Positions 7,588 to 47,738 of a stretch of DNA of 64,000 nt are shown piece after piece; positions within the stretch are counted from its first letter, which is position 1, and the number at the start of each line of letters is the position of its first letter. Source of the stretch: an uncultured Candidatus Binatia bacterium (GTDB lineage Bacteria; Desulfobacterota; Binatia; Bin18). A program made the translations under genes and the position numbers. The stretch is taken from contig CBDCPK010000005.1 of assembly GCA_965220195.1 (NCBI GenBank), positions 3,029,875 through 3,093,874 of the forward strand, read 5' to 3'. Below the pieces are notes generated by a model. It did not search any database. It was not told where the DNA came from and saw nothing but the letters and a program-made list of their open reading frames with translations.

Positions 7588-7974
7588 TTACCAGAGACGG
7601 CGAACGCCGTACCGGTCGAAGAGTGATTCGTTCGAAATGAAAACGAGATTGTGCGTCAGTGCCTGGGCGATGAGCATCCGGTCGAAGGGGTCGCGATGGG
7701 GACCAGGTAAAGCTCCGGCGCGACTGGCGTCATCCACTGTGATGGCAAGCTCGCCGAAACCCTGGTTTGCTATAGCTTCGGCAACGTCGGCGGCGATCAG
7801 GTCAGCGCCCGGGAGTTTGCCGAGCCGATGCTTGGTGGTGATTTCCCAGGCCGACGCTGCGCTTATCAACACTTCATTTGCCTCATCCGCAATCGCGCGG
7901 TGTACTGTCTCAGATAGACGCCTGCTGTCTGTCATCCACCAAAGAAAGGTATGAGTGTCCAACAGTGCTCGCAC
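7588..7974 (-). CDS. vapC: Type II toxin VapC (PIN domain ribonuclease)
   Basis: LLDTHTFLWW N-terminal PIN signature with conserved acidic residues. Directly downstream of the antitoxin gene. Confidence 0.8.
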   Translation of the reverse strand: MRALLDTHTFLWWMTDSRRLSETVHRAIADEANEVLISAASAWEITTKHRLGKLPGADLIAADVAEAIANQGFGELAITVDDASRAGALPGPHRDPFDRMLIAQALTHNLVFISNESLFDRYGVRRLW

Positions 7975-32874: not shown

Positions 32875-34335
32875 ATGTCCGTTCGCACTCTGGTCAAATC
32901 CATTCAGGACATCATGCGCCAGGACACGGGCGTGGACGGTGACGCCCAGCGTATCAGTCAGTTGTGCTGGATGTTCTTTCTCAAGATCATTGACGACCAG
33001 GACCAGGAAATGGAGATGGAGAGGGAGGGGGAGGGCTACACGTCCCCTATACCCGAGCAGTTTCAATGGCGGACCTGGGCGGCCGACCCCGAGGGCATGA
33101 CCGGTGAGGAACTGTTGAACTTTATCAACGCCGACTTGTTCCCGTCGCTGAAGAACCTGGAAATTGACCAGGCAGGAGCCCGTAGCCGCGTTGTGCGCGA
33201 TGTTTTTGAGGATGCCTACAACTACATGAAGTCCGGCCAGTTGGTGCGTCAGGTGGTCAACAAGATCAACGATATTGACTTTAATGACCTGACCGAGCGT
33301 CAGCATTTCGGCGACATCTACGAGCAGATTCTCAACGACCTGCAATCCGCGGGCAATGCCGGCGAGTATTATACGCCCCGCGCCGTAACCGCCTTTATGG
33401 TTGATCGTATCGACCCCAAGCCGGACGAGACCGTATTCGACCCGGCCTGCGGGACCGGTGGCTTTTTGACCTGTGCACTGCGTCACATGCGTGAGCGTTA
33501 TGCCAAACGGCCCGAAGACGAACCGACCATACAGGCTGCCCTGCGTGCCGTTGAAAAGAAGCAGCTCCCCCACATGCTGTGCGTGACCAATATGCTGCTG
33601 CACGGCGTTGAAGACCCGAGCTTTGTGCGCCACGACAACACCCTGGCGCGGCCCTACATTAGCTGGGAGCAAAAGCACCGGGTGGACATTGTCCTGACCA
33701 ACCCGCCTTTTGGCGGCAGGGAGGAAGACGGTATTGAGGCCAACTTTCCGAAAGAGTTTCGGACCAAGGAGACCGCAGACCTGTTCCTGGCTCTTATTAT
33801 CCGCCTGCTGAAGCCGGGTGGGCGCGCCGCCGTGGTGCTGCCCGACGGCTCGCTGTTTGGCGAGGGCGTCAAAACGCGGCTCAAGGAGCACTTGATGGAG
33901 GAGTGCAACCTGCATACCATCGTGCGCCTGCCCAATTCCGTGTTCCGGCCGTATGCCTCTATCGGCACCAATCTGCTGTTCTTTGAGAAGGGCGCACCAA
34001 CCACTGACATCTGGTTCTACGAGCACCGCGTGCCCGCAGGTCAGAAAGCCTATTCCATGACCAGGCCGATCCGGCTGGACCATTTACAGCCCTGCATCGA
34101 CTGGTGGGGTGGGGCGGAGCGCACGGACCGCACGGAAACGGAGCGCGCCTGGAAGGTGACCGCCGAAGCCGTCAAGGCGCGCGGCTACAACCTGGACATC
34201 AAAAACCCGCATACCCAGGCAGACGACCTCGGCGACCCGCAAGAACTGCTGGCCAAGCTCAGCGCAACCGAGGCCGAGGTCACGGACTTGCGGGACCAGT
34301 TAAAGGCGATATTGGCCGAGGCGTTGCTGCGGTAA
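32875..34335 (+). CDS. hsdM: Type I restriction-modification N6-adenine DNA methyltransferase M subunit (HsdM)
   Basis: NPPFGG catalytic motif, SAM-binding FDPACGTGGFL, and the HsdM N-terminal domain. Starts 4 nt after the hsdR stop. Confidence 0.9.
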   Translation: MSVRTLVKSIQDIMRQDTGVDGDAQRISQLCWMFFLKIIDDQDQEMEMEREGEGYTSPIPEQFQWRTWAADPEGMTGEELLNFINADLFPSLKNLEIDQAGARSRVVRDVFEDAYNYMKSGQLVRQVVNKINDIDFNDLTERQHFGDIYEQILNDLQSAGNAGEYYTPRAVTAFMVDRIDPKPDETVFDPACGTGGFLTCALRHMRERYAKRPEDEPTIQAALRAVEKKQLPHMLCVTNMLLHGVEDPSFVRHDNTLARPYISWEQKHRVDIVLTNPPFGGREEDGIEANFPKEFRTKETADLFLALIIRLLKPGGRAAVVLPDGSLFGEGVKTRLKEHLMEECNLHTIVRLPNSVFRPYASIGTNLLFFEKGAPTTDIWFYEHRVPAGQKAYSMTRPIRLDHLQPCIDWWGGAERTDRTETERAWKVTAEAVKARGYNLDIKNPHTQADDLGDPQELLAKLSATEAEVTDLRDQLKAILAEALLR

Positions 34336-34593: not shown

Positions 34594-34890
34594 TTGAATA
34601 AATCCCGTCAAGCCAGGCAGACCGGCCCGGCACGGACTTCCGGCTGGAAGCTGGGAGAGGCCAAGGCAAAGTTCAGTGAACTCGTTCGCCTTGCCGCGTC
34701 CGGGCAGCCGCAACGGGTCACGGTTCACGGGAAGGACGCCGTGGTCATCGTCGCGGCAGACACATTCGAAGCCCTCCAGGCGCGGGAGCAATCGGGCAGC
34801 TTACACGAACTCCTGTCCCAATCTCCGCTGAGCCGTATCACGTTCGGTGGAGATAGTGTTCGGAGTCCGGTCCGTGAGTGTGCGTTGTGA
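34594..34890 (+). CDS. Phd/YefM-family antitoxin-like protein
   Basis: WKLGEAKAKFSELVR...VTVHGKDAVVIV matches the Phd/YefM N-terminal fold. TTG start after an AAGGGGAA RBS. Confidence 0.55.
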   Translation: MNKSRQARQTGPARTSGWKLGEAKAKFSELVRLAASGQPQRVTVHGKDAVVIVAADTFEALQAREQSGSLHELLSQSPLSRITFGGDSVRSPVRECAL

Positions 34891-34936
34891 ATAGCGCTTG
34901 CCTCTCTCGTCTTTCTATTTCACAATGGTCTCCATG

Positions 34937-35149
34937 AACACGGTCACTGTTCGCCTGGATGCAGAGCTTGCCCTTGAGTTGACAAAACTCGCGAAACGTA
35001 CGGGACGCCCCAAAAGCGAGTTGATTCGCCGTGCGTTACGCCGCCAACTGGCATTGGCTCGTTTTGAAGAACTGCGTCAGGGTGTCGCGCCGTTCGCAGA
35101 GGCCAGAGGGTGGCTTACGGATGAAGACGTTTTCCAGAACGTCTCATGA
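34937..35149 (+). CDS. Ribbon-helix-helix (CopG-like) antitoxin
   Basis: MNTVTVRLDAELALELTKLAKRTGRPKSELIRRAL is a typical RHH. Its stop overlaps the vapC start. Confidence 0.6.
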   Translation, partial: NTVTVRLDAELALELTKLAKRTGRPKSELIRRALRRQLALARFEELRQGVAPFAEARGWLTDEDVFQNVS

Positions 35150-35541
35150 GGGTATTCTTGGACACCAACGTGCTGGTTGCCGCCTACGCGACGCGCGGAC
35201 TTTGTGAGGATGTCTTTCGAGTCATATTAGCAGAACACGAACTCGTCGTGAGCGAGACCGTGCTCGCCGAATTTGAGCGCGTCCTGGTGCAGAAGCTCCG
35301 CTTGCCTCTTCCGCAAGTAAAAACACTGTCATCTTTCTTACGAAGACAGGCCGACATCGTTGACCCTGTCGCTCCCTCCGTGTGGCCGAAACGTGACCCG
35401 GACGACCGATGGGTCGTTGCGGCAGCGATAGAGGGAGGCGTTGATTTTCTTGTCACTGGTGATCGTGACCTGCTTGAAGTCGCTGCTGAAGTGCCCGTTT
35501 CCATCGTCTCGCCGCGAACGTTCTGGGAGCAACTTCGTTAG
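35146..35541 (+). CDS. vapC: VapC-family PIN-domain toxin
   Basis: MRVFLDTNVLVAA N-terminus, with conserved Asp/Glu positions later in the sequence. Confidence 0.8.
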   Translation: MRVFLDTNVLVAAYATRGLCEDVFRVILAEHELVVSETVLAEFERVLVQKLRLPLPQVKTLSSFLRRQADIVDPVAPSVWPKRDPDDRWVVAAAIEGGVDFLVTGDRDLLEVAAEVPVSIVSPRTFWEQLR

Positions 35542-35678
35542 TCCGCAGGGTGGCTGAGGAAAATGTCAGGTGAAGCTTCGCTCACTTGGCCTACGAGGCT
35601 GTTGGCCGGTTACACTCCTAAAGCATTGCCAAAAAGTAGCCTATACGCTACTGGAGGGTATGCCTGGGAGATGAGCAT

Positions 35679-35999
35679 ATGGCAAGGCGCACCATTCCGT
35701 ACGAAGACCTCCTCTATCAGGACCTCCAAGACCCCGAAGAGGCTGTGGCGTATCTGAACGCTGCCCTGGACGACGAATATGCACAGGGGGCAGAGGTCTT
35801 TCTCTTAGCCCTCCGTGATGTTGCCAAGGCTCGTGGTATGAAACAACTCGCTCAGGACACGCAACTCAGCCGGGAGAGCTTGTACCGAACATTGTCCCGT
35901 AAGGGGAACCCTCGCTTTTCCACGCTTGAGGCCGTGTTGAAGAGTCTTGGGCTGAAACTGAGTGTGACGGTGAAGCCCCCGGAAACAAAGGCTGCCTGA
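35679..35999 (+). CDS. HigA-family addiction-module antidote protein (orphan)
   Basis: DPEEAVAYLNAALDD...LLALRDVAKARGM...SRESLYRTLS matches the TIGR02684-like antidote family. No killer partner is detected upstream. Confidence 0.6.
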   Translation: MARRTIPYEDLLYQDLQDPEEAVAYLNAALDDEYAQGAEVFLLALRDVAKARGMKQLAQDTQLSRESLYRTLSRKGNPRFSTLEAVLKSLGLKLSVTVKPPETKAA

Positions 36000-36005
36000 C
36001 CTCCG

Positions 36006-36065
36006 CGTTACCTCTTCAATGAATGCCGAACACCTGCTCACCCACTTCGACCGCATAGCCGACGC
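36006..36065 (+). repeat. Direct repeat 1: duplicated 5' end of hsdS (about 50 bp plus GCCGACGC)
   Basis: CGTTACCTCTTCAATGAATGCCGAACACCTGCTCACCCACTTCGACCGC matches 36804-36852 with two mismatches. Confidence 0.7.
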
Positions 36066-36109
36066 GGCGCAGGTGACGCTTCGCTCGCCTAGGCTACGAG
36101 GCTGCCGAT

Positions 36110-36604
36110 ATGACTAAACCACGCGTGTATGTTGAGACCACGATTCCCAGCTTTTACCACGAAGAGCGCTCTGCTCCCGACATCGTAGCGCGCCGGGAAT
36201 GGACGCGGCGATGGTGGGACAGTGCGCCCGAGCACTACGAGCTTGTCACCAGCCCGGCCGTTCTGGACGAGCTGGCCCGCGGGATCCCGGAACGCAGTGA
36301 GAGACGCCTGTCGCTGGTGCGCAATCTCCCGCTCCTGCCCGTCGAATTGGCTATCACCGAGATCGTCCAAGGGTATATCAGGCACAAGCTGATGCCGGCG
36401 GATCCTGGTGGTGACGCCTTGCACTTGGCGCTCGCCTCCTACCACAAATGCGACTTTCTGGTAACGTGGAATTGTCGACATCTGGCAAACGCGAACAAGT
36501 TTGGCCATATCCGCCGTGTGAATACGATGCTCGGCCTTTTTATTCCGGCGCTCGTGACCCCGTTGGAACTCTTTGGAGGGAGCGATGAAACAGAATCAGA
36601 GTGA
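36110..36604 (+). CDS. PIN-like domain protein (putative VapC-like toxin)
   Basis: C-terminal DALHLALASYHKCDFLVTWNCRHL resembles the PIN C-terminal motif. The N-terminus (VYVETT) has Glu in the first acidic position. Confidence 0.5.
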   Translation: MTKPRVYVETTIPSFYHEERSAPDIVARREWTRRWWDSAPEHYELVTSPAVLDELARGIPERSERRLSLVRNLPLLPVELAITEIVQGYIRHKLMPADPGGDALHLALASYHKCDFLVTWNCRHLANANKFGHIRRVNTMLGLFIPALVTPLELFGGSDETESE

Positions 36605-36782
36605 CCCGGTGATTGATGAGATTCGAGAAGTGCGGCACCGCATCTCGGCGTGCTTTGGCCATGACCCCACACGGTTGGTAGCCTTCTACATGGAAATGCA
36701 GAAGCAGTACCAGGACCGGCTGATTGAGACCGCAAAGAGTTCTCAGGATAAGGATAACCAGCAATCTGACACGGCGCTTTAA
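36585..36782 (+). CDS. Small partner protein of the PIN-like gene (putative antitoxin), 65 aa
   Basis: Overlaps the PIN-like gene's 3' end by 20 nt. Charged helical protein. Confidence 0.4.
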   Translation: MKQNQSDPVIDEIREVRHRISACFGHDPTRLVAFYMEMQKQYQDRLIETAKSSQDKDNQQSDTAL

Positions 36783-36803
36783 CGCGCGAACAGCTCGCCG
36801 CAT

Positions 36804-36863
36804 CGTTACCCCTTCAATGAACGCCGAACACCTGCTCACCCACTTCGACCGCCTCGCCGACGC
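36804..36863 (+). repeat. Direct repeat 2: authentic 5' end of hsdS
   Basis: Partner of 36006-36065. Contains the hsdS start codon at 36817. Confidence 0.7.
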
Positions 36864-38532
36864 ACCGGACGCTATTCCGCGCTTGCGCCGGTTTATTCTT
36901 GATCTGGCGGTACGCGGCAAGCTGGTGGAGCAGGACCCGGAGGATGAGCCGGCGGGGGAGCTGTTGAAGCGGATTACGCCTGAGAAGCAACGACTTGTGG
37001 CTGAGGGGAAATTCAAATCGCTAGATACTACCGAATTCGATAATGGAGCAGAGAATGTTTCATTCTCAATCCCTGCTAATTGGGTGTGGTGTCGCCTGGA
37101 TGATATAGCAGCAATTGCCAGAGGCGGGTCGCCACGACCCATCAAAGCTTATCTCACGGATGACAGGGACGGCATCAACTGGATAAAGATCGGCGATTCA
37201 GAGAGAGGCAGTATCTACATAAACGAGACGAAAGAAAAAATTCGGCCTGACGGCCTAAAGAAATCAAGAATGGTCTTCCCCAATGATCTGATTCTATCGA
37301 ACTCTATGAGTTTTGGTTATCCATATATCTTGAATATTCAAGGATGCATACACGACGGATGGTTAGTCATACGAACTCCAGATGGTTTGTTGGATAAACT
37401 GTTTCTCTACAATTTGCTCCTTTCAAGCCATTCTAGGAACACGTTTTCAAATGCTGCGGCAGGGGCAGTAGTACAAAATCTAAATGCGGATAAGGTGCGG
37501 AGGCTTTCCATCCCCCTCCCACCCCTTGCCGAACAACACCGCATCGTCGCCAAAGTTGATGAACTGATGGCCCTGTGTGACCGGCTGGAAACAGCGCGGG
37601 AGGAGCGGGAAGCGACACGCAACCGACTGGCAACGGCAAGCCTCGCCCGCCTCAACGCACCCGACCCCGACCCGGCGGTCTTTCAGAACCACACGGCCTT
37701 TGCCCTCAACAACCTCACTCCGCTTACTACCCGTCCAGACCAGATCAAGGCGCTACGTCAGACCATCCTTAACTTGGCGGCACGGGGGAAGCTGGTGGAG
37801 CAGGACCCGGAGGATGAACCGGCGGGGGAACTGTTGAGAAAAGTAGCTGAGACCCGGAAGGCTCTAGTCGCTGAACGTAAAATGAAGCGTTCAAAGGACC
37901 TGCCGCCAGTAGAGGATCAAGAGATTAAGTTTGGTATACCAGCAGGATGGGCCGTTACTCGTATGGGCGTCGCGTATGACGTTCGTGACGGAACTCATGA
38001 CTCACCGAGGTACGTTGATGAGGGGTATCCACTTATCACTAGCAAAAACCTATCTTCCGGGTACTTATCCTTTGACGAGACGAAATTGATTAGCGAAGAG
38101 GACTACATTAAAATCTCGCAGCGATCTGCAGTCGTAAAAGGCGATATACTTTTGGCGATGATTGGGAGCATCGGAAATCCAGTGATCGTCGATACTGATC
38201 AACCATTCGCAATCAAAAATGTCGCCCTGCTAAAATATTTTGATCCAGACTATTCTAATCCCAGATTTTTACGGTTTTTCCTTCTAAATGCTGCTAACGA
38301 GATGAAGGCTCTTGCTGCCGGTGGTTTGCAACCATTCGTCTCACTTAGTTTCCTGCGAAACTATCCTCTTGCTCTTCCGCCGCTTGCCGAACAACACCGC
38401 ATTGTTGCCAAGGTTGATGAACTGATGGCGGTGTGTGACCGGTTGGAGGCGAGCCTTGCTGGGGGTGAGGAGACGCGGGGGCGGTTGGTGGAAGCGGTGT
38501 TACATGAGGCGTTGGCGCCAGAGTTGCACTGA
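36817..38532 (+). CDS. hsdS: Type I restriction-modification specificity subunit (HsdS)
   Basis: Two target-recognition domains. The duplicated conserved regions LAxRGKLVEQDPEDEPAGELL and LPPLAEQHRIVAKVDELMAxCDRLE each occur twice. Confidence 0.85.
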   Translation: MNAEHLLTHFDRLADAPDAIPRLRRFILDLAVRGKLVEQDPEDEPAGELLKRITPEKQRLVAEGKFKSLDTTEFDNGAENVSFSIPANWVWCRLDDIAAIARGGSPRPIKAYLTDDRDGINWIKIGDSERGSIYINETKEKIRPDGLKKSRMVFPNDLILSNSMSFGYPYILNIQGCIHDGWLVIRTPDGLLDKLFLYNLLLSSHSRNTFSNAAAGAVVQNLNADKVRRLSIPLPPLAEQHRIVAKVDELMALCDRLETAREEREATRNRLATASLARLNAPDPDPAVFQNHTAFALNNLTPLTTRPDQIKALRQTILNLAARGKLVEQDPEDEPAGELLRKVAETRKALVAERKMKRSKDLPPVEDQEIKFGIPAGWAVTRMGVAYDVRDGTHDSPRYVDEGYPLITSKNLSSGYLSFDETKLISEEDYIKISQRSAVVKGDILLAMIGSIGNPVIVDTDQPFAIKNVALLKYFDPDYSNPRFLRFFLLNAANEMKALAAGGLQPFVSLSFLRNYPLALPPLAEQHRIVAKVDELMAVCDRLEASLAGGEETRGRLVEAVLHEALAPELH

Positions 38533-38601: not shown

Positions 38602-39894
38602 ATGGAACTAGAGAAGATAAAAAGCGTGGATGAGTACCTACGCTCTTTACAATCTTTGCGCAATGCACATGCCTACAGGTATAGGGGACAATCTAACAGT
38701 GCATGGCCGGTATGCTCCTCATGGGCTCGCGCATTTAAAGGCCAAACACATTGGGACTGCCTTTCCTACCATTCAGACCTGATACGCGATTTTCCTTCCT
38801 TTGATTCTCTACCTGGATACGTAAGAGACCTTTCCAGAGAGAATCCGAGTCTTCTTACAGATTGGGATAAAGTAGCAATTATACAGCATTATGGAGGTGA
38901 GACTGGAAAAAAGACTATACTGACCGACTTTACTATAAGGCCGCTTATTGCCCTATGGTTCGCTTGTCAAGAAAAGGAGCACCGGAAAGAAGACGGAAAA
39001 GTCTTTGCTGTTTCAATTGATATTTTAGACGAGGTAGGGCTCCCGCATATCGATGATTATATTCGGGGCAACCATTCAGATTTGTACACTCTCGATAGAT
39101 CGTACCTATTTCCTACAAGTTTTCAGTACAATCCCAGAGGCAATACCAGAAGTCCTCACAAAAGCTATGTTTCTCGGATCGATAAGCAAGCATCATCCTT
39201 TGTCCTAGGGATTGAGAGGGTTGAGGAGGCTAAATGCAAATCAGTCATAATTGAGGCCAGCAGCAAGAAGCGAATACTCAATGAGTTGCGCTACTTTTTC
39301 TCCATATCAGAGAAAGCGCTCATGGATGATTGGTATGCTCTTGGCGAGGCTGTAGCGAACGGCAAGGAGGTGTCTACCGACGGTTTTACCGATGCTGAGT
39401 ACTATAACTTAGCGAAGGATATTAGTTTGTTACATAGACAACCGAGGGCTGGGCGTCCTTATTTTGAGGAAGCCCTCCAATACTGGCATTCTCAGAGAGA
39501 TCGTAGAGAGGCAATGGTTAAAGCCAGTTACTCTGATGACGCCGACCGAGAAAGAGTGCGTTGTTACATGAATCAAGCAGGAGCGCACTATTACATGAAT
39601 ACGGCTTGGACGATCTACTGTCTTGAGGATGCAGATGAGGGGGAGACACGGCGTGCTTGTGGTTATGCCCACAAGGGTTTTGATATGGCTAGCTATGATC
39701 CACAGCGTCCCGGATTCGCTGTAGTCTATGCCCTTTGTCTACTGAGATTGAATAAGGAAAAAGCCGCATACGATTTATGCAGGAGAGAACTCGATTTCTA
39801 CGAGCACTCTGCCCCCGCCTTCTGTACGGGCAAGAATTCTCCTTCTATTGATAAATTGAGAAGGATAGTGAACATTTATGAGGCTCACCATTAG
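38602..39894 (+). CDS. FRG-domain protein
   Basis: The N-terminal YRYRGQSNSAWPV motif is the FRG signature. Low G+C. GAAGGTGA RBS. Confidence 0.65.
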   Translation: MELEKIKSVDEYLRSLQSLRNAHAYRYRGQSNSAWPVCSSWARAFKGQTHWDCLSYHSDLIRDFPSFDSLPGYVRDLSRENPSLLTDWDKVAIIQHYGGETGKKTILTDFTIRPLIALWFACQEKEHRKEDGKVFAVSIDILDEVGLPHIDDYIRGNHSDLYTLDRSYLFPTSFQYNPRGNTRSPHKSYVSRIDKQASSFVLGIERVEEAKCKSVIIEASSKKRILNELRYFFSISEKALMDDWYALGEAVANGKEVSTDGFTDAEYYNLAKDISLLHRQPRAGRPYFEEALQYWHSQRDRREAMVKASYSDDADRERVRCYMNQAGAHYYMNTAWTIYCLEDADEGETRRACGYAHKGFDMASYDPQRPGFAVVYALCLLRLNKEKAAYDLCRRELDFYEHSAPAFCTGKNSPSIDKLRRIVNIYEAHH

Positions 39895-40183: not shown

Positions 40184-40516
40184 GTGAGGCCCGCCTTCTT
40201 TCATCCCAAAGCGAGAGACATCTTGCGGACTTTTCCAGAAACAGTACGAAAAGAGTTGGGCAAGGCTATTATAGATTTGCAGAAAGGGGCTTCTGTAGGC
40301 CCGCCCCTCTCTCGGCCTATGCCGTCCGTGGCTCTAGGGACAAATGAACTCAGAATCCGTGATCGTACGGGAATTTATCGAACCTTTTACTATACAAAGG
40401 CAGCGCGTGGGGTCTTGATCTTTCACGCGTTTATTAAAAAGACGCAGAAAACGCCGTTACGAGAGATTGAGACCGGAAGGAAACGGCTTAAGGAGATGCT
40501 CCATGAACTCAGCTAA
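40184..40516 (+). CDS. higB: HigB-like toxin (RelE/ParE superfamily, Gp49-like)
   Basis: LRIRDRTGIYRTFYYTKAARGVLIFHAFIKKTQK matches the Gp49/HigB family. GTG start. Confidence 0.65.
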   Translation: MRPAFFHPKARDILRTFPETVRKELGKAIIDLQKGASVGPPLSRPMPSVALGTNELRIRDRTGIYRTFYYTKAARGVLIFHAFIKKTQKTPLREIETGRKRLKEMLHELS

Positions 40517-40802
40517 ACCTGTCGTTGCAGAAGACGCGACTGCGCTGGCGGAAATTTTAGGACTGACTCCCATTGATGGAGCGGAAATCCAGTTGCGGAG
40601 CGACTTGAATGACAAAATTATTGAGGTTGTGGAGAAAAGCGGACTCACCCACGCTCAGGTTGCCAAACTGGCTCGGACTTCCCGGTCCCGTATGACGGCA
40701 ATTCTCAACCGTAATACCCAAGATGTCTCTACTGACCTGATGCTCCGCATCATGGCCGGCTTAGGCTATCGGGCCAAACTGACCTTCTCACGGGTGGCGT
40801 AG
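40503..40802 (+). CDS. higA: HigA-like XRE-family HTH antitoxin
   Basis: HTH motif LTHAQVAKLARTSRSRMTAIL. ATGA overlap with the higB stop. Confidence 0.7.
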   Translation: MNSAKPVVAEDATALAEILGLTPIDGAEIQLRSDLNDKIIEVVEKSGLTHAQVAKLARTSRSRMTAILNRNTQDVSTDLMLRIMAGLGYRAKLTFSRVA

Positions 40803-40986
40803 CCGACTTCTTCAGCCCCGTAGCCTCCGTCTCATCCGACCTCTGGAACTCAGCGGGTTCGTTGCCTGATATGGACTAGGCGGAAGATGGCACATCTAAG
40901 AAGTTGACAAGCTAATTTGAGACGCATATGGTTTTGCTGTGACTGACAGAGTTGCCTGAGCGACTCGCTGAAGTCAGTCGCCTTCA

Positions 40987-41020
40987 ACGCTAACTTTTGG
41001 TGGTTAGCGTTTTTCTTTTT
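40987..41020 (+). terminator. Rho-independent terminator (8-bp stem ACGCTAAC/GTTAGCGT plus T-run)
   Basis: Perfect 8-bp stem with an 8-nt loop, followed by TTTTTCTTTTT. The same bases encode the Lys-rich C-terminal tail of the convergent minus-strand PIN gene. Confidence 0.5.
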
Positions 41021-41292
41021 ACGGATTTTCCCGGTCGGTTTTTTCTTGTCTTTTTGTCATCCAGGTCGGTCAGGAGCCTGTCGATTTCGTCGTCTGTCCG
41101 TCCGTGGAGCCGGACGAGACGCGGACGGCGCAACACGGACGAATACTCGTTGAGCAGGTCGTCCGACATGAGGTAAAGGAGGTCGCCATCAAGCATGGCG
41201 TCCAGTATCCGTGCTGGGGGACTGCTCGAATCCGCGCCGATCAGCCCCGAAACGATGACATTGGTGTCGATAATACAAGCCTTCGGCGTCAT
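40990..41292 (-). CDS. PIN-domain toxin (VapC-like)
   Basis: ACIIDTNVIVSGL PIN N-terminal signature. Basic C-terminal tail. Confidence 0.7.
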   Translation of the reverse strand: MTPKACIIDTNVIVSGLIGADSSSPPARILDAMLDGDLLYLMSDDLLNEYSSVLRRPRLVRLHGRTDDEIDRLLTDLDDKKTRKNRPGKSVKRKTLTTKS

Positions 41293-41334
41293 CGGCTCTC
41301 TTCCGCACCTCTCGAACTTGGCCGCTGACGCCGC

Positions 41335-41580
41335 TCAGCGCGACTGCTCGTCACGAAAACGTCTTGTTTCCTCGACTGCCAGGGCCATCGCGTCGGGAGC
41401 GTTCAATCCAAACTGCGCTCGCGCCTTGGCGACAATCTCCTTGGCGGTATCGTAGGGTCGGATCCCTCTCAGTTCCAGGCTTTCCTCGATGATTGAAGCC
41501 ATGGAACGATTCTGCCGGGCCGCCGCTTCCTTCAGTGCCCGGTGTGTCCGGTCGGCTAAACTGATGGTCAGGCGGGGCAT
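41335..41580 (-). CDS. Ribbon-helix-helix antitoxin partnering the PIN toxin
   Basis: MPRLTISLADRTHRALKEAAARQNRSMASIIEESL is an RHH fold. Located upstream of the toxin on the same strand. Confidence 0.6.
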   Translation of the reverse strand: MPRLTISLADRTHRALKEAAARQNRSMASIIEESLELRGIRPYDTAKEIVAKARAQFGLNAPDAMALAVEETRRFRDEQSR

Positions 41581-41702
41581 GAGGATACACTCCTGTTCAT
41601 AAGCGCCGATTCAATGCTGCAAGCACCATAACACCATACCGACAATCTACATGTCCCACTCTTCAAAGGGAACTCTCCCCCTCGCGAGTCTCGGGGATGT
41701 CG

Positions 41703-41745
41703 GATTACGCCCCCGGCTCATCCAACCTATAGGGCTATGGGCGAC
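41703..41745 (+). repeat. 45-bp direct repeat, copy b (GGGGATGTCGGATTACGCC...)
   Basis: Partner of 40081-40125. Confidence 0.55.
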
Positions 41746-41861
41746 CCGACTCCCCTCTCGGGACGTGTAATACATATTAGGCTGTGACCGATGGAGTAGG
41801 TCCCTCTGAAAGCGGAGTCAACAGGGGCTGGGGGAGAGCGACGGGGTTCATTGCATCGTAT

Positions 41862-44510
41862 TCAACGTCGTTTCTCGGTAAACTCTTGTCGGATTTCTGT
41901 CACGGTATCCCTGATCTCCGCAGGTAGGGGTTCAAGTTCTTCGCCCAATTCTTCCCGTACAGCGTGCCAGAGCGGCTCCATTGGCTCGGCCAGTCCGGCT
42001 TCCTCCATTATCTGCTTGACGCGCGGGCCGTGGCCGGCGGCGACGGCCCGGATCAACGACTCTGTTAAACTAGGCCATTCCTGTTCCTGGAAGTCGCCGC
42101 CGATGCGTAGCGCGTGTTCGATCTGGTCCAGCGCTTCTGTCCATTGGCCACGATGAGCCAAGACATCGGAGAGCGTTTGAAAAGTGCTCGGATTCTTCGG
42201 CCCCAGTTCTATCGCGCGGCGGGCGCATTCCTCGGCCTCCAGCAGACGCGCGGCGTCATTCTGGTCAAGAATCGCTGTTGCCAGAATACGCCATGCTTCA
42301 TCATACGTCGGTGCGATATCCGTCGCCCTTCTACAACCAGCTTCCGCTTCATCGTGCCTTCCAAGTACGTTCGATAACCGACCGCCAGCTATCAGCCATT
42401 TTGCGACTGGACGACGTAGTTCCATCGGGTCGTTTGAGCGTACATAATCCGAGGAACGTTGAAAAATGGCGGCTACGTCTTCGTACCGTTTCAGGCCACC
42501 AATGCTAATGGCTTTTCTGCCTAGCGCTCTAATGGCTACATCACGCAGTTCCTTTGGGTCCTCCGTGCGGACATACTCGGTGGTCCGCTCCCAAGCAGCG
42601 GTGGCTTTTTCGTTGCGTCCCAGCTTGGCAAGAAGGTCACCCTTGGCGTTGAACGCCTCGGCGGCCAATTGGCGTAAGTCCACAGAGTCATCTGGATGGA
42701 CGTATTCCGTGACACGCTGCCAAGCAGCGATAGCCTCTTCATGACGACCCAATTTGGTGAGAGCCATGCTGTTGGTCCCGTGAGCCCAGGCGGCCATGTT
42801 GCGCAATTCTACCGAGTCATCCGGACGGATATATTCCGATGCCTGCTCCCATGTGGCGATGGCGTCTTCGTGCCGCTCCAGTTGGAAAAAAGCAAGGCCC
42901 TTGCTTGCCAATGCCGCGACGACTACGCCGCGTAATTCTGGCGAACCAGACGGACTCGTCTGCTCCAAGACACGATCGGAGGCGGCTATGGCGTCTTTGA
43001 AACGGCCCTCTTCAATCAGCGTGACGCTGCGTTCCACCCACTCGACAAGACGCTCTAGGCTTGCTTTATCTTGGCCTGCAAACGCCTCCTGAATTTTCTC
43101 AACGACCGGCGCGTTCGGACTGATAAAGTTCTTAGCAAGATCGAGCGCCTCGCGTTGCCAGTCCTCCCGCCCTTTGAAGTCCGTATCTCCAGCTACGTAG
43201 CCAGCCAGGATGGTGAGCCAATCGGACGCTTCTCCGCCGTGTGAGCCGTTCACTCGTAACGCCGACAGTACCGCCGGATACATCATCCGCATTCCGGATG
43301 GACCGAAAAGATCGTGAAGGAAGGCGACGAGTCGCTCTAAGCGGTGCCGGCCTGCACGCGAGAAGCGTAGCAGATAGTAGATGTTGTAAAATCGATCGCT
43401 GACTTCATATCGTATCCGCTTTGCTCCTCGTAGCCGGATCTCTTTTGCATAGCCCTTTTCCATAAGTTGCTTGAGTTGGGCGCTAGCGTGCGAGGAGTTT
43501 AGATTCGCGGCGTCGGCAACCTCCCTCGCCAGCATCGGCTTCCATCCCTCCGCGAGACAGTGAAATACTTTGCGGGACTGACCCGGTAATTCCTCGATCC
43601 GGGCTTTGAAATAAGGCGTCTGTTCGTCGATGAGCCGTTCCAGATCCTCAAAGGCAGAGCCGAGCGGCGATTCGATCAGGAGCCGACAGGCAAGAACCAG
43701 CAACCGCGGGTTCCCGCCCGTCAGCCGACGCAGGGTCTCCAGCCGGCCACGTTCATGACGCAGGGTTTCCGCAATTCCTGGCTTGCCGTCGCAAGCCGCG
43801 AGTGTTTCAAGTATGCGGAGAGTCTCTTCCTGCCCCAGACCTTCGAGCAGGAAGAGCCGGAAGAACTCGTAAAACGGCTCGCCGTGTCCTCGGATGGCTT
43901 CGAAGACGGCGTTAGCAGAACCGACCAACAGGATATTCGGACATTCAATCAGACTGGCCCGCAACGCGTGAACTTCGCGCTCGTCGCGCAACTGCTCGAA
44001 GACGGCGTCGAGGTTCTCGACGAACAGGATCAACCGTTTGCCGCTTGCCCGGCAAAAGTCCATAAGCGCTGCGAGCGCGTACGCGGCGAGCCGTTCCGTG
44101 TCTCTTTCGTCCTGGGCTAGAGCGTTGGCTCTGTCCTCCCACTGCGAGTCCTCGGTGGCGCGGGTCAGATGGCGCAGAGCGACAAGCCAGAAGTCCGCCA
44201 AGTTACCGACATCGTAGCTTTCCTCGTAGAACGGGACGGGTTGCCAGTTCGCGGCAAGGTCGGGCGACTCTCCAACTGCGTGCAGAAACCGTAGCCCAAG
44301 GGTAGTTTTTCCCATTCCGCGCGGGCCGATGAGCAGCATATGCTGACACGGTCGTCCGCGCTGCTGCTCGCGAATCAGGCGGAGCATCTCTGCGAGAGTT
44401 TTTTTACGAGCGACGAACGACGCCTTCAACTCGTCAGGAGTAAGCTGGGCCGGGTTGTACAGACGCTGGCGGATCATGACGCGACACTCCCGTGGTATTT
44501 CCGCCACCAT
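41862..44510 (-). CDS. STAND-like P-loop NTPase with winged-helix and C-terminal TPR array (882 aa)
   Basis: Walker A GPRGMGKTT. Walker B hhhhD(VEN)LD. Winged-helix region. At least 8 TPR-like repeats with a recurring A..W/Y..A pattern. An alternative start at 44477 gives a 4-bp overlap with the upstream gene. Confidence 0.7.
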   Translation of the reverse strand: MVAEIPRECRVMIRQRLYNPAQLTPDELKASFVARKKTLAEMLRLIREQQRGRPCQHMLLIGPRGMGKTTLGLRFLHAVGESPDLAANWQPVPFYEESYDVGNLADFWLVALRHLTRATEDSQWEDRANALAQDERDTERLAAYALAALMDFCRASGKRLILFVENLDAVFEQLRDEREVHALRASLIECPNILLVGSANAVFEAIRGHGEPFYEFFRLFLLEGLGQEETLRILETLAACDGKPGIAETLRHERGRLETLRRLTGGNPRLLVLACRLLIESPLGSAFEDLERLIDEQTPYFKARIEELPGQSRKVFHCLAEGWKPMLAREVADAANLNSSHASAQLKQLMEKGYAKEIRLRGAKRIRYEVSDRFYNIYYLLRFSRAGRHRLERLVAFLHDLFGPSGMRMMYPAVLSALRVNGSHGGEASDWLTILAGYVAGDTDFKGREDWQREALDLAKNFISPNAPVVEKIQEAFAGQDKASLERLVEWVERSVTLIEEGRFKDAIAASDRVLEQTSPSGSPELRGVVVAALASKGLAFFQLERHEDAIATWEQASEYIRPDDSVELRNMAAWAHGTNSMALTKLGRHEEAIAAWQRVTEYVHPDDSVDLRQLAAEAFNAKGDLLAKLGRNEKATAAWERTTEYVRTEDPKELRDVAIRALGRKAISIGGLKRYEDVAAIFQRSSDYVRSNDPMELRRPVAKWLIAGGRLSNVLGRHDEAEAGCRRATDIAPTYDEAWRILATAILDQNDAARLLEAEECARRAIELGPKNPSTFQTLSDVLAHRGQWTEALDQIEHALRIGGDFQEQEWPSLTESLIRAVAAGHGPRVKQIMEEAGLAEPMEPLWHAVREELGEELEPLPAEIRDTVTEIRQEFTEKRR

Positions 44511-45670
44511 TCCCGCAAGAGATTCGAGCGGAATTTCAGGTGACTGTCTTCCTGTTTTACGTAACCGTCGGCCTCCAGGTCGCGGAGCACGGACTGGAAC
44601 GTTTGCTCGTTGCGCTGTCGCAACTCTTCGAGTTCCGCGAGAGCCACACCGTCCTCTCGCCGGCAGACGCGGCTCAGGATATCACGTGCCGCTTCGTGTT
44701 CGTTCTCGTCAAATGCAATTTCGAGGCGCGCTGCATAATGGTCCAGATGGGCGGTGCCACTGGCTCCCGCCAGACGTTCCGCGAAACACCGCTCAATCAC
44801 TTCCAACGAAACGTGAGAAGCTTCGCCTCTGCAAGCATCGCGAAGCGCCGAGAAGAAAAGCTGAACATGGTACGGAACGGGCTCCCGCAGCAGGTCCAGG
44901 ATATGCGTGATAGCTTTTTCGTCGAGAGGAAAACTAGAATCACCGCCCAGCCCTTTCAGAAATTCGACAGCGGTCGGCCTGTTCCACGAGTCCAGGCGGA
45001 ACGGAGAGAGATCGTTAATCAGCCCTGAAAGGCCCGCGCGGCGCAGGACTCCTTCAAGTCCGATCGATCCGCCGACAAGTGTACGGACCCTGGTGCGCAA
45101 TTCTGGCGCTTGGCGCCAAGACCGAAGCCTGGACAGTAGTAATTCAGCATCATGTTTCCGCTCCTCATTCCGCAGCATCCGCGAAAGGAGGAGCGGTAGT
45201 TCATCAATGATGATCAGAAGATTCCCGCCGGTGTCCGGCAGGCTCGTCAGGCGCGCCGTGAGTTGGTCCGCAGCGTGGTCCCACTCACGGCCAATCGCCC
45301 GTCTGAGTTCGACACGCACTATGCCAGTATCAACACTGGCGGACAGGCGTCCAAAGACACCCTTGATGGCGTTCGAGAATGGAATCGCCTCGAAACGGCT
45401 TCGATATTGAGGATTGGCTGCCAGAGCAGCGATAATCGCCGCCATGCAGTCCGCCGGGTCGTCCCCACTTTCAACATCCACATAGATGACATCCCAGTTC
45501 TCGCGCGGCGCGCGGCGGAGCTCCAGCATTAAGCTGGTCTTGCCCACCCGCCTGGGGGCGAGCATTAGAATGTGCTCTCCTTGTTCCAGCTTTTCCCAGA
45601 GGCGGGCTATCTCGTAATCTCGTCCATAGAGGTCGTCGCCGACGACTGCCTGGCCAGTGACGTTGCGCAT
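44474..45670 (-). CDS. AAA+/ATPase_2-type P-loop ATPase with C-terminal winged-helix-like region (398 aa)
   Basis: Walker A APRRVGKTS. Walker B LLIIIDE. Same family architecture as the N-terminal half of the downstream gene. AGGAGA RBS and an AT-rich promoter with a TTGCCAAAAA duplication. Confidence 0.7.
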   Translation of the reverse strand: MRNVTGQAVVGDDLYGRDYEIARLWEKLEQGEHILMLAPRRVGKTSLMLELRRAPRENWDVIYVDVESGDDPADCMAAIIAALAANPQYRSRFEAIPFSNAIKGVFGRLSASVDTGIVRVELRRAIGREWDHAADQLTARLTSLPDTGGNLLIIIDELPLLLSRMLRNEERKHDAELLLSRLRSWRQAPELRTRVRTLVGGSIGLEGVLRRAGLSGLINDLSPFRLDSWNRPTAVEFLKGLGGDSSFPLDEKAITHILDLLREPVPYHVQLFFSALRDACRGEASHVSLEVIERCFAERLAGASGTAHLDHYAARLEIAFDENEHEAARDILSRVCRREDGVALAELEELRQRNEQTFQSVLRDLEADGYVKQEDSHLKFRSNLLREWWRKYHGSVAS

Positions 45671-45953
45671 ATATGAATCTCCTGTGGAGATTTTAGTGTG
45701 GCACCACGATAAATGACAAAGATATTTTTGGCAATAGATTTTTTGGCAAAAATTCTGATGTTATCTTTTGGTAAGGAGAAAATACTGCTAGGACAAAGAC
45801 TTAAAATCGCTCGTGAAGCGTAAGCCACCAAACGGCAGGAATGCGTTTGATCGTTCCGTTCAAGGGGAGGCGAGGCTACGAGGAGAGCCGATCAGATTTC
45901 TTTGGGGGGCAAAAACGTATCCACGAAACCACGAGGGGAAGTCACAGAGACGT

Positions 45954-46055
45954 CGCTCAGCGCGATTGCTCTTCACGAAAACGTCTTGTTTCCTCGACTG
46001 CCAGAGCCATCGCGTCGGGAGCGTTCAATCCAGACTGCGCTCGCGCCTTGACGAC
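45954..46055 (-). pseudogene. Truncated duplicate (3' about 100 bp) of the RHH antitoxin gene at 41335-41580
   Basis: About 90 percent identical to 41332-41433. No start codon and no intact ORF. Confidence 0.6.
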
Positions 46056-46152
46056 AAGACTAAGGCAAACTGTCCTCCCGCCTCCAGTTTAACAGAAGTA
46101 GTCTTATCGGACGTAATCTGCCTCAACGTAGTGCGAGACCTACTGTCCGGCA

Positions 46153-46878
46153 CTACAGTACGCCGAGGGGCGGCATGAGGTGAAGCTCGTCGGTATGAAT
46201 ACCGGCGGGCTGGGCAAGGACGCTCAGCATGGCATCTGCCACATCGTCCGGAGACAGCATTTTTGTCCGGTCCAGGTCTCCGCCGCTTTTGTCCCACAGG
46301 GGAGTATCGACAGCGCCGGGAATAACCGCGGTGACTTTTATCCCCTCTGAACGGACTTCAGCCGCCAGGACTTTCGTCAGACCGAGGGCGCCGAATTTGG
46401 AGGCGGTATAGGCGGTTGAGCCGGGTAAGATCATGTGGCTGGCAATGGACAATACGTTGAGGATATGGCCGCTTTTTCGGGGCAGCATGTGTTTGAGGGC
46501 ACTTTTACAGCAGAGATATGTCCCACGCAGATTGACGTTCATGAGCATGTCCCAGTCCTCGGTACGGGACTCCATGATGGGACCAAAGGCTGCGCCACCG
46601 GCGCTCGTCACCAGAATATCAAGCTGTCCGAACTCTTGGACGGCTTGATCCATCAGACTTGCGATTGCTCGCTCGTCGGTGACATCGGTGGGAACCGCGA
46701 CGGCTCGGGCGCCGGCCTGCGCACATTCTTGGGCAACTCCATCCAGCGTGGCCTGGGTCCGGGCAGCGAGCACGACCCGCACGCCGGCCCGAGCGAGGGC
46801 GAGGGCGGTGGCACGGCCTAGGCCGGAACTCGCGCCGGTAACAACGGCAACCTGTCCGTGAAGCTTGGGGGATGACAT
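46153..46878 (-). CDS. SDR-family short-chain dehydrogenase/reductase
   Basis: TGASSGLG cofactor motif and YxxxK catalytic motif. Confidence 0.8.
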   Translation of the reverse strand: MSSPKLHGQVAVVTGASSGLGRATALALARAGVRVVLAARTQATLDGVAQECAQAGARAVAVPTDVTDERAIASLMDQAVQEFGQLDILVTSAGGAAFGPIMESRTEDWDMLMNVNLRGTYLCCKSALKHMLPRKSGHILNVLSIASHMILPGSTAYTASKFGALGLTKVLAAEVRSEGIKVTAVIPGAVDTPLWDKSGGDLDRTKMLSPDDVADAMLSVLAQPAGIHTDELHLMPPLGVL

Positions 46879-46901
46879 GCTGGATTCCTTACGCGGGGCT
46901 C

Positions 46902-47738
46902 TTACGCGTTCTCTCCGTGATATTCAAAGAAATTCTTCGGGGTTTCCCATAAACCAATACGCACCAGGTGTGCGTCCAGACGCGGTTTCAGCAAGTCCCA
47001 AATAACGTGGACAATGTTTTCTCCCGTGGGGTTCAGATTGCGAAATTCCTCTGTGTCTCGATTGAGATGTTTATGGTCAAAACGCTCGATCACTTCTTCT
47101 TGCACAACCTGCATAAGCTCGACCAGGTCAAAAACCATACCGGTCTGCGGATCGATAGAGCCGGTGACGGTCACTTCCAGTTCGTAATTATGGCCATGGC
47201 CATGCAGATTATTACACTTGCCGAAAATCTCTCTGTTCTGCTCGTCGGATAAGTGCGGACTATGGAGACGGTGGGCTGCGCTAAAGCTGAACGATTTTGT
47301 GAGTGCGGCCATAGTCTTTCCCTCTCCGCCCGACACATCGGACCAGAGTGTTGGTTCTTCATACAGGCGAACGCGCAAGAGCTGTGCTGCCATCTGCTCC
47401 GCACGTAACCGGTCTTCAAGATAATCTCGCATATAGGCTGCGAGGTTCTCCGTCGTAGGAATGCGACGGCTAAAGGCCGGATGGTCGAGATTGATGAATT
47501 TATGGTCAAACTGGCTGGTGACCTCTTTGAGCAAGCGGTCAAGTTCCTTGATATTAATCACCATCCCGGTTTGCGGGTCGCTCTCTCCGTGAACGGTCAC
47601 ACGCAAGACGTAATTATGCCCGTGGCCGTACGGACTGACGCATTTACCAAAGGTCCGCCAATTTTTTTCCTCTGAAAAATCGGGATTCCAATAGCGGTGA
47701 GACGCCTCAAATTCAACAAAGCGGGTGAGATGATACAT
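46902..47738 (-). CDS. Tandem 6-pyruvoyl-tetrahydropterin synthase (PTPS/QueD-like) domains
   Basis: Two repeats, each with SAAHRL/EASHRY and GHGHNY(E/V)L motifs. Confidence 0.75.
   Translation of the reverse strand: MYHLTRFVEFEASHRYWNPDFSEEKNWRTFGKCVSPYGHGHNYVLRVTVHGESDPQTGMVINIKELDRLLKEVTSQFDHKFINLDHPAFSRRIPTTENLAAYMRDYLEDRLRAEQMAAQLLRVRLYEEPTLWSDVSGGEGKTMAALTKSFSFSAAHRLHSPHLSDEQNREIFGKCNNLHGHGHNYELEVTVTGSIDPQTGMVFDLVELMQVVQEEVIERFDHKHLNRDTEEFRNLNPTGENIVHVIWDLLKPRLDAHLVRIGLWETPKNFFEYHGENA

Follow-up and report, generated by a model that had tools for sequence, protein, structure and literature searches.

A mobile pair of distantly related STAND/ORC-like NTPase genes preceded by an operator-like repeat array in a Candidatus Binatia genome

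What can a pair of related nucleoside triphosphatases (NTPases) do for a bacterium when neither of them carries a recognisable effector domain? The question is raised by two adjacent genes, designated here A and B, on the minus strand of a 64,000-nt stretch of DNA (the window) from an uncultured Candidatus Binatia bacterium (contig CBDCPK010000005.1). The original prediction, made from the letters of this stretch alone, took them for an operon of paralogous STAND-like ATPases and for a candidate uncharacterised defence or abortive-infection system. Our analysis supports a two-gene operon of (distantly) paralogous STAND-like NTPases with its own promoter, and we propose that A-B would be a self-contained, mobile, two-protein NTP-dependent switch of STAND/ORC-like type. 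A role in surveillance or defence against phages or other mobile elements is the function that we favour, with a probability of roughly 0.4.

Both open reading frames (ORFs), of 398 and 882 amino acids (aa), were found in the ORF list on the minus strand and where they had been predicted. Gene A (44474-45670, minus strand, 398 aa) has a ribosome-binding site (AGGAG) ca. 8 nt ahead of its ATG and codes for a sensor-less NTPase with a P-loop nucleotide-binding domain (NBD), a helical lid and a C-terminal winged helix. The longest ORF for gene B spans positions 41862-44510 (minus strand, 882 aa) and, as the ORFs run, overlaps A by 37 nt. The start of B is probably M12 of this ORF, giving a product of 871 aa (41862-44477), because the ATG at 44477-44475 overlaps the TGA stop codon of A as ATGA and because alignments with homologs of 872 aa cover the 871-aa form in full (100 %); the overlap would then most likely be only 4 nt. 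In an alignment of B homologs, the consensus begins MIRQRLYNP. The B product consists of a nucleotide-binding oligomerization domain (NOD) module paralogous to A, whose NBD, helical domain and winged helix correspond to residues 1-360 (43398..44477, minus strand); a helical spacer; an alpha-solenoid of TPR-like repeats at residues ~493-800 (42078..43001, minus strand), including four tandem units of ~43 residues; and a conserved C-terminal tail at residues 811-871 (41865..42047, minus strand; …EPMEPLWHAVR.ELGEE.EPLP.EI…).

The pairing of A with B holds throughout the family. A scan of one genome per species yielded 77 distinct loci with a relative of A, from about ten phyla, and the co-occurrence in other genomes that the original prediction called for was found in 77 out of 77, with a relative of B directly after A and on the same strand. 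The two genes usually overlap by 4 nt in the homologous loci, which suggests translational coupling. Additionally, separate protein searches with A and with B appear to meet many of the same contigs, providing independent evidence of co-occurrence. Clustering of neighbouring ORFs identified no third conserved gene near the pair (the B cluster spans 74 loci, the A cluster 67 and the next largest 12), and a conserved third gene coding for an effector, which we had considered as a candidate, was rejected with this result. More distant A-B pairs occur on plasmids of Clostridium tagluense and Segatella copri. The partner of A on the Clostridium plasmid is a protein of 530 aa that matches the NOD of B (30 % identity, E 2e-63) and lacks the TPR array; the conserved core would therefore be A plus the NOD of B.

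A profile search against 1.84 billion representative proteins retrieved 608 clusters of the A family at 50 % identity (E<=1e-30), and nearly all of their members are of 390-420 aa. Rare fusions (P0289, P0381) carry either an N-terminal SLFN_AlbA_2 plus HATPase_c_4 or an AbiEi_4 antitoxin/regulator domain. SLFN_AlbA_2 and AbiEi_4 are partners typical of conflict systems, and the fusions could be gene-calling artefacts.

BLASTP comparison of A with B detects only the P-loop, and hhalign with narrow alignments of close homologs recovered just 26 P-loop columns. This last result is misleading, as diverse alignments are needed: when these included the distant clade of the family, residues 12-374 of A aligned with residues 19-347 of B over 306 columns (probability 98.4 %, E 8e-15). 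Product A is thus the counterpart of the entire B module formed by NBD, helical domain and winged helix, and profile comparison identifies A and B as distant paralogs. The earlier assignment of both products to the same family thus stands at the profile level, and finds no support in BLASTP or in the narrow alignments.

Pfam searches agreed with the prediction of P-loop NTPases with Walker motifs and a winged-helix-like region, and of TPRs in B. Product A matches AAA_16 with 26.8 bits, below the Pfam cut-off, as were its matches to AAA_22, nSTAND1 and ATPase_2, and B matches AAA_16 with 45.3 bits, above the cut-off. Winged-helix-like matches are to MarR_2 (A 330-376) and HTH_IclR (B 315-356), and TPR families match residues ~497-805 of B. 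Matches to more specific models stay below the cut-offs: those to nSTAND1, nSTAND5 and nSTAND6 (24.7, 18.5 and 18.3 bits) are all under the gathering scores, NACHT appears, sub-threshold, in two distant B homologs, and PF01637 (ATPase_2) stays at 19.9 bits for A and 16.7 bits for B, with a cut-off of 33.2. A scan of A and B against NCBIfam gave nothing above noise, the orc1/cdc6 model TIGR02928 reaching E 0.011 and 14.6 bits with a cut-off of 181.

The motifs are those of the STAND superfamily in its broad sense, with GKT in both products, hhhhDE in A and hhhh(D/E)-N-x-D in B. From Pfam and from the secondary structure of AlphaFold2 models, the NBD is followed by a STAND-type helical domain with a GxP-type motif and then by a winged helix. 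The Walker A (APRRVGKTS) and canonical Walker B (hhhhDE) motifs of A are invariant across the family, and GSIGL and PYxxQL are also conserved. The Walker A motif of B is GPRGMGKTT (G.RG.GKTT in the family), and its Walker B motif is non-canonical, with an Asn in the catalytic position that is invariant in 35 sequences, including those from the distant clade. The GxP-type motif is a nearly invariant TGGNPR in B, with PVPYH at the aligned position of A. Judging from these motifs, A would be a competent hydrolase; B may combine nucleotide binding with poor hydrolysis, or may rely on the downstream Asp in the manner of NACHT proteins.

The AlphaFold2 model of A (pLDDT 80) has its best Foldseek matches in the archaeal Walker-type ATPases 2qen and 2fna, with TM-scores of only about 0.5, and lower-ranked matches in ORC/Cdc6, RuvB, clamp loaders, TnsC, plant NLR resistosomes and Avs3. 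The model of B (pLDDT 77, with ~90 for the helix pairs of the repeat region) matched mostly plain TPR proteins, plus the STAND-TPR protein 6mfv over ~800 columns. Sequence searches of the PDB were less informative: with the A profile nothing came up beyond a match to the P-loop of 2qen and what looks like a spurious match to a TetR protein (DarR), and the B profile retrieved TPR proteins only.

Pfam searches with A and B detected no nuclease, TIR, Sir2 or protease domain and no enzymatic domain of another type, confirming the absence of a recognisable effector noted in the original prediction. A domain scan of 10 distant B homologs (710-1250 aa) likewise found no enzymatic domain. All ten contain AAA_16, most have TPR or PPR alpha-repeats, several show a winged-helix match, and two are without a recognised C-terminal domain.

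Sequence variation in B is not evenly distributed. In an alignment of 26 B homologs, examined in blocks of 30 residues, conservation in the NOD (residues 1-450) is 0.82-0.97 in most blocks, with three blocks at 0.70-0.75. The repeat region (residues 451-720) shows the lowest conservation within the pair (0.49-0.64) and contains indels of 37 and 44 columns, corresponding to the gain or loss of whole repeats, and the C-terminal tail (residues 811-870) has values of 0.81-0.88 and many invariant columns. The variable array of B thus looks sensor-like. Five loci (L004, L028, L043, L047 and L051) contain in-frame variants of B without the TPR array that keep the NOD and the C-terminal ~70-170 residues; these forms may be functional isoforms or decay products. 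Split matches to B were also seen in L001, L002, L027 and L036, possibly from frameshift or divergence.

Upstream of A there is a compact promoter region (45690..45749, minus strand). Its G+C content is 34 % over 130 nt, compared with 55 % for the window, and it contains two matches to sigma-70-like promoters, in agreement with the earlier proposal of an own AT-rich promoter with a duplicated TTGCCAAAAA. This duplication has one match in the 64-kb window, with 0.01 expected by chance. The description of the genome as high in G+C needs to be amended, about 55 % being moderate. Three hexamers, TTGCCA, TTGCCA and TTGTCA, start at positions 45749, 45734 and 45719, with an exact period of 15 nt, and the second and third double as the -35 boxes of the two overlapping sigma-70-like promoters (45734-45706 and 45719-45690), whose -10 boxes are TATCGT (45711-45706) and TAAAAT (45695-45690). 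The operator-like repeat array formed by these hexamers is a new observation, left without interpretation in the original prediction.

The array is a property of the family. In 45 of the 51 loci of the close clade, a TTGSCA-N9-TTGNCA motif precedes A at a distance of ~60-80 nt, and 38 loci have three consecutive sites; the motif persists even where protein identity falls to 55-70 %. The strict pattern TTGCCAAAA-N6-TTGCCA matches 38 of 86 loci, 36 of them at ~50-85 nt before A and on the same strand; the exceptions are L021, on the opposite strand, and L035, ~2.1 kb upstream of A. Apart from L035, there was no further match to the strict pattern in the ±10 kb flanks of the loci. In L035 the motif (7866-7886) lies 2.1 kb from an A match at position 10001 that begins at residue 35, and an insertion between them may explain this distance. 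Distant homologs have other repeat sequences in the same layout, with a period of 15-16 nt and 2-4 copies, such as the four copies of TTACAACAGATTTGTT upstream of A in Enhygromyxa, the three copies of AAAACAAATTTGACGT in L077, or the ACAAC…GTTGT units in other loci. Exact 8-mers spaced by 15-16 nt were found upstream of A in 28 of 51 close and 12 of 26 distant loci, compared with 6 of 697 and 10 of 229 for the other genes of those loci. Since the sequence of the repeats changes with the protein clade while their layout is constant, the array is most simply explained if one of the module's own proteins binds the sites. We thus infer that the winged helix of A or B would bind the array and autoregulate the operon.

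When metagenome contigs were searched for the operator motif (17 specified bases), at least 120 matching stretches came up. None of the 80 loci among the matches listed encodes A or B; the motif is too short and AT-rich for that database. Contig L161 contains three matches to TTGCCAAAA-N6-TTGCCAAA at 30-nt spacing (644-726) and no homolog of A or B; these may be due to chance or represent a similar operator of an unrelated protein.

A conserved array of direct repeats over -35 and -10 boxes, changing in sequence with the protein clade, would also be expected of a signal-sensing pair of transcription regulators of the MalT/LAL/PH0952 type. In such a pair B would sense a small molecule or a protein through its TPRs, and A and/or B would bind repeat boxes with the winged helix, at their own promoter and at unlinked genes. 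The NOD plus TPR architecture, the fold match to 6mfv, the MarR/IclR-like winged-helix matches, the lack of an effector domain and the location of many homologs amid metabolic genes are all consistent with this function, which we consider possible, if somewhat doubtful. Nevertheless, the Pfam searches found no LuxR/GerE or SARP DNA-binding domain in A or B, and an assignment to a characterised regulator of the MalT/AfsR type, which would have told against the original prediction, did not emerge. Moreover, the 77 loci have no conserved neighbouring target operon, and the repeat motif appears once per locus, only before A, in stretches of about 20 kb for each locus and in the 64-kb window. The transfer of a regulator across phyla without its targets would be unusual, and hypervariable repeats with gain and loss of whole units are more typical of conflict sensors. 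Architecture alone cannot separate defence from regulation, because in a census of the STAND superfamily, with 589 prokaryotic clades of which 198 are defence-associated, the defence clades are interspersed with regulators in the tree (PMC13581612).

Comparisons of the window with the homologous loci by blastn indicate how far the pair has travelled. Identity is 85-92 % with MAGs (metagenome-assembled genomes) of Binatia and 78 % over 2.7 kb with the Gammaproteobacteria MAGs L005 and L006, and all alignments end at ~45755-45764 upstream and ~41835-41869 downstream. These shared boundaries indicate that the promoter, A and B are the unit that moves, a cassette of ~3.9 kb (41838..45760, minus strand). 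Across phyla, identity is 65-78 % for proteins and 78 % for DNA. The cassette contains no integrase or transposase, and its G+C content (58 %) differs little from the 55 % of the window. As judged from these alignments, the A-B cassette is horizontally mobile between bacterial phyla.

Mobility, together with the resemblance of the A fold to ORC/Cdc6, TnsC and RuvB, the 2-4 iteron-like tandem repeats directly upstream and the distant homologs on the Clostridium and Segatella plasmids, could also be explained if the pair served the maintenance or replication of a mobile element, as an ORC/Cdc6-like initiator or a centromere-binding ATPase pair acting on iteron-like repeats. This we regard as very unlikely. 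The pair is single-copy on chromosomes and in varied housekeeping contexts, without a conserved integrase, transposase, relaxase or helicase beside it; a separate Rep gene is annotated on the Clostridium plasmid; the repeats overlap the promoter, as operators do; and a TPR sensor has no obvious role in replication.

The close clade comprises 51 loci (50-93 % identity), all from MAGs and with at least six phylum-level labels, including Binatia, Thermodesulfobacteriota, Gamma- and Alphaproteobacteria, Latescibacterota, Spirochaetia and Dadabacteria; Acidobacteria MAGs also yielded close homologs in the protein search. The nearest relative of the window is the Candidatus Binatia MAG L001, with 93 % identity in A and 94-95 % in the flanking toxin-antitoxin (TA) segments. 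The distant clade (~30 % identity, 26 loci) includes Desulfovibrionaceae, Cyanobacteria, Acidobacteria, Caldilineaceae and Myxococcota, among others, the latter with the isolate Enhygromyxa salina DSM 15201, and homologs also occur in gut and food isolates. Many of the isolate names in the close clade (RHO1_bin, COS2_bin, SB0661_bin, jk18x…, ENGE20 scaffold) suggest sponge-microbiome projects, and the recent spread of A-B across phyla would be a marker of gene exchange in that community. Sponge symbionts have been reported as enriched in restriction-modification (RM) systems, CRISPR and eukaryote-like repeat proteins, and as exchanging genes laterally (PMC8163846).

This possible origin brings in the idea of a host-association factor of sponge or invertebrate symbionts, in which B would be a TPR-containing "eukaryote-like protein" contacting the animal host. 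The close clade (>50 % identity) does consist of MAGs of lineages typical of sponge microbiomes, where such repeat proteins and lateral transfer are reportedly enriched, and even so we give the idea hardly any credence: the TPR array is fused to an NTPase of cytoplasmic type, general Pfam and NCBIfam scans, in which signal peptides were not specifically sought, found no secretion-related domain in A or B, and the same two-gene layout is present in MAGs of Acidobacteria, Cyanobacteria and Myxococcota, in the E. salina isolate and in the gut and food isolates.

How would a surveillance switch made of A and B work? By analogy with MalT, PH0952 and Avs, B would be the sensor, in which a ligand, most likely a protein, would bind the repeat array and release autoinhibition. 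The ATP-bound form of B might then nucleate a hetero-oligomer with the sensor-less A, as linkage, translational coupling and paralogy suggest, and one of the two winged helices would bind the array of 15-bp period, autoregulating the operon, as its conservation and co-variation with the protein clade suggest. The output would be non-enzymatic, for example an ATP-driven oligomer or filament on DNA, or the sequestration of a target. A more specific version, which we hold to be unlikely, is an effector-less system similar to sensor/helper NLRs, in which ligand-bound B, holding ATP but hydrolysing it poorly, would seed an ATP-dependent polymerisation of A and the winged helices of A would coat DNA, blocking replication or transcription. 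Coating would make use of operator recognition and could block either the invader or the cell, and immunity would be exerted by the NOD oligomer itself.

A function in surveillance or defence is favoured by the obligatory linkage and paralogy of the two genes, the fold matches of A to NLRs and Avs3 and of B to 6mfv, the variable repeats, mobility, the lack of a linked regulon, the operator-like array, contexts of conflict type and the rare SLFN_AlbA_2 and AbiEi fusions. Among these contexts, the window itself has type I RM, TA and FRG genes; locus L080 has a CRISPR I-F system, a Schlafen-like (SLFN) gene and a WYL gene as neighbours; L085, a type II RM system and a PIN TA pair; L083, AAA_15 and DUF4276 genes; and the Segatella plasmid, DUF262 and WYL genes. 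A recurrent minority of neighbours consists of OLD/ABC-type ATPases (similar to HEC-01, GajA and AriA) and of HEPN/nucleotidyltransferase, RHH and helix-turn-helix (HTH) genes. Candidates similar to HEC-01, with an AAA_15/AAA_21 ATPase and in some cases DUF4276, lie within 10 kb of A-B in L006, L014, L027, L037, L046 and L083/L084. These candidates vary in position and orientation and share little identity with one another, and are therefore independent co-locations and not shared synteny.

Several observations weigh against this function. The absence of an effector domain from the pair and from the 10 distant B homologs leaves a defence output undefined, the conserved operator and the winged helices fit a transcription factor equally well, and it is linkage that suggests an A-B complex. 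For the neighbours sampled at positions ±1-3 in the 77 loci (299 proteins, with 112 Pfam families among 149 of them), the most frequent families are largely metabolic or housekeeping ones, defence-type matches being a small minority in raw counts, and the neighbours of L086 and L207 are purely metabolic. Proximity to defence genes is in any case weak evidence, because the MAG sets of the close clade are reportedly enriched in defence genes in general (PMC8163846). The defence-island context of the original prediction therefore applies to this window and to some relatives, and not to the family in general, housekeeping genes surrounding A-B in most loci; the association of A-B neighbourhoods with defence is suggestive. 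The pair is not recognised by PADLOC 2.0 or NCBIfam. The only PADLOC matches were to mad8, PDC-S27 and PDC-S01, at E ~1e-3 and at the level of the P-loop, in line with the earlier statement that the pair corresponds to no named system, and relatives of A were not found in phage records (INPHARED) or in IMG/VR viral contigs.

The sequences on both sides of the cassette belong to a TA module. Downstream there is a copy (40990..41580, minus strand) with an intact RHH antitoxin gene (41335-41580; FitA-like_RHH) and a 3′-truncated PIN gene (40990-41292). The VapC toxin proposed as intact is thus truncated, its ORF of 100 aa retaining about half of the domain (positions 3-78 of the 115-position PIN_3 profile) and ending in a Lys-rich junk tail. 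Upstream, a decayed copy (45883..46057, minus strand) consists of the 3′ end of the RHH gene (45949-46057) joined to the 3′ end of the PIN gene (45883-45958). The predicted duplication of the antitoxin 3′ end is real and in direct orientation (41327-41435 and 45949-46057, 94.5 % identity over 109 nt), and comparison with the intact pair of L002 (16209-16934) shows that the upstream duplicate continues with the final ~76 nt of the PIN gene. From these alignments, A-B lies between two decayed copies of a single RHH-PIN module. The same remnant is immediately upstream of A in L003 (9459-9713), and the module is 2 kb downstream of B in L002. A target-site duplication was considered and rejected, as the repeats are parts of two decayed RHH-PIN copies and the module is located elsewhere with respect to A-B in L002 and L003. 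The clean insertion into a TA locus that had been envisaged does not hold either, since the order RHH′-PIN3′ / A-B / RHH-PIN5′ is unlike that of a simple insertion; the arrangement looks like the result of recombination in a TA-rich hotspot. An Rfam search with positions 40800-46300 gave no match.

Beyond the downstream copy, the island of type I RM, FRG and TA genes was confirmed, with hsdR (30463-32871), hsdM (32875-34335), hsdS (36724-38532), a gene for an FRG protein (38602-39894), a Gp49/HigB-HTH pair (40184-40802) and PIN genes. Small TA-type genes are situated between hsdM and hsdS (34594-36604), including PIN-domain genes at 35146-35541 and 36110-36604. The FRG gene forms a patch of 46 % G+C in the window of 55 %, which suggests a separate recent acquisition beside the RM system. 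On the other side of the cassette, the region 46153-47738 looks by eye like housekeeping sequence, with an ORF similar to short-chain dehydrogenases (46153-46878) and an ORF of 278 aa (46902-47738) that looks internally duplicated, with two HGHGHNY motifs; these genes appear to mark the edge of the island.

Among known systems, Avs (Avs1-21) and the defence clades of STAND proteins share with A-B an NTPase-helical-winged-helix module followed by a variable TPR-like sensor (PMC13581612). Avs proteins have also spread horizontally, with some copies in defence islands, and Avs3 is among the fold matches of A. Unlike Avs, which have a fused effector, none was found in the pair or in the 10 distant B homologs, and A-B has an obligatory second paralog without a sensor. 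Additionally, neither A nor B matched an Avs profile in PADLOC, and the best folds for A are archaeal PF01637-type ATPases and ORC/Cdc6, not Avs or NLRs. We know of no Avs counterpart of the conserved operator array. The PADLOC models mad8 (of the MADS system) and PDC-S27 are touched by A and B at about 1e-3 over 40-130 residues at the P-loop, which does not amount to membership.

MalT, the LAL regulators and PH0952 (6mfv) share with B a NOD plus a TPR-type sensor, 6mfv aligning over about 800 columns. MalT follows an autoinhibition logic and binds short direct-repeat boxes in promoters. In A-B, a repeat array was seen only at the promoter of the module itself, where binding is predicted; unlike MalT and LAL proteins, the pair comprises two proteins, with neither a LuxR-type HTH output nor a linked regulon, and the similarity is that of generic AAA_16. 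The PF01637 ATPases (2qen, 2fna) and ORC/Cdc6 proteins resemble A in size and in having an AAA+-like NBD, a lid and a C-terminal winged helix. A differs from 2qen and 2fna in its Pfam scores under the cut-off and in TM-scores of about 0.5, and these two proteins have no defined function and no known TPR paralog as a partner; literature linking PF01637, Arch_ATPase or COG1672 with defence provided nothing useful.

A-B is therefore of a known kind, STAND/ORC-like NTPases of which one has a TPR sensor, and many uncharacterised STAND clades exist. We found no description of the obligatory pairing of a paralog with a sensor and one without, the lack of an effector in the scanned homologs and the operator array together, and the family has no name in the curated models. 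Proteins of the STAND/NLR type act as central switches of immunity and regulation in all domains of life, those of bacteria are rapidly gaining assigned functions, and the layout seen here is widespread, with at least 608 clusters for A: two NOD paralogs, one sensor, no effector and an operator array that apparently co-varies with the protein clade. If A-B is a regulator, it would open a new, mobile class of STAND transcription factors in which DNA is bound by the winged helix of the NOD; as a cassette of 3.9 kb with its own promoter, it can be easily tested for this function or for defence. By functional analogy only, the pair also resembles NAIP-NLRC4 and the plant pairs of sensor NLRs and NRCs, which consist of two NOD paralogs, one of them with repeats. 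The repeat-less A would have the role of the amplifying or executing partner, and NRC resistosomes are among its fold matches. A differs from helper NLRs in having neither a repeat domain nor a CARD or coiled-coil-type executioner, and the lineages are unrelated. If its role in defence is true, A-B would be an NLR-like pair acting without an enzymatic effector, a bacterial counterpart of the sensor/helper NLR pairs.

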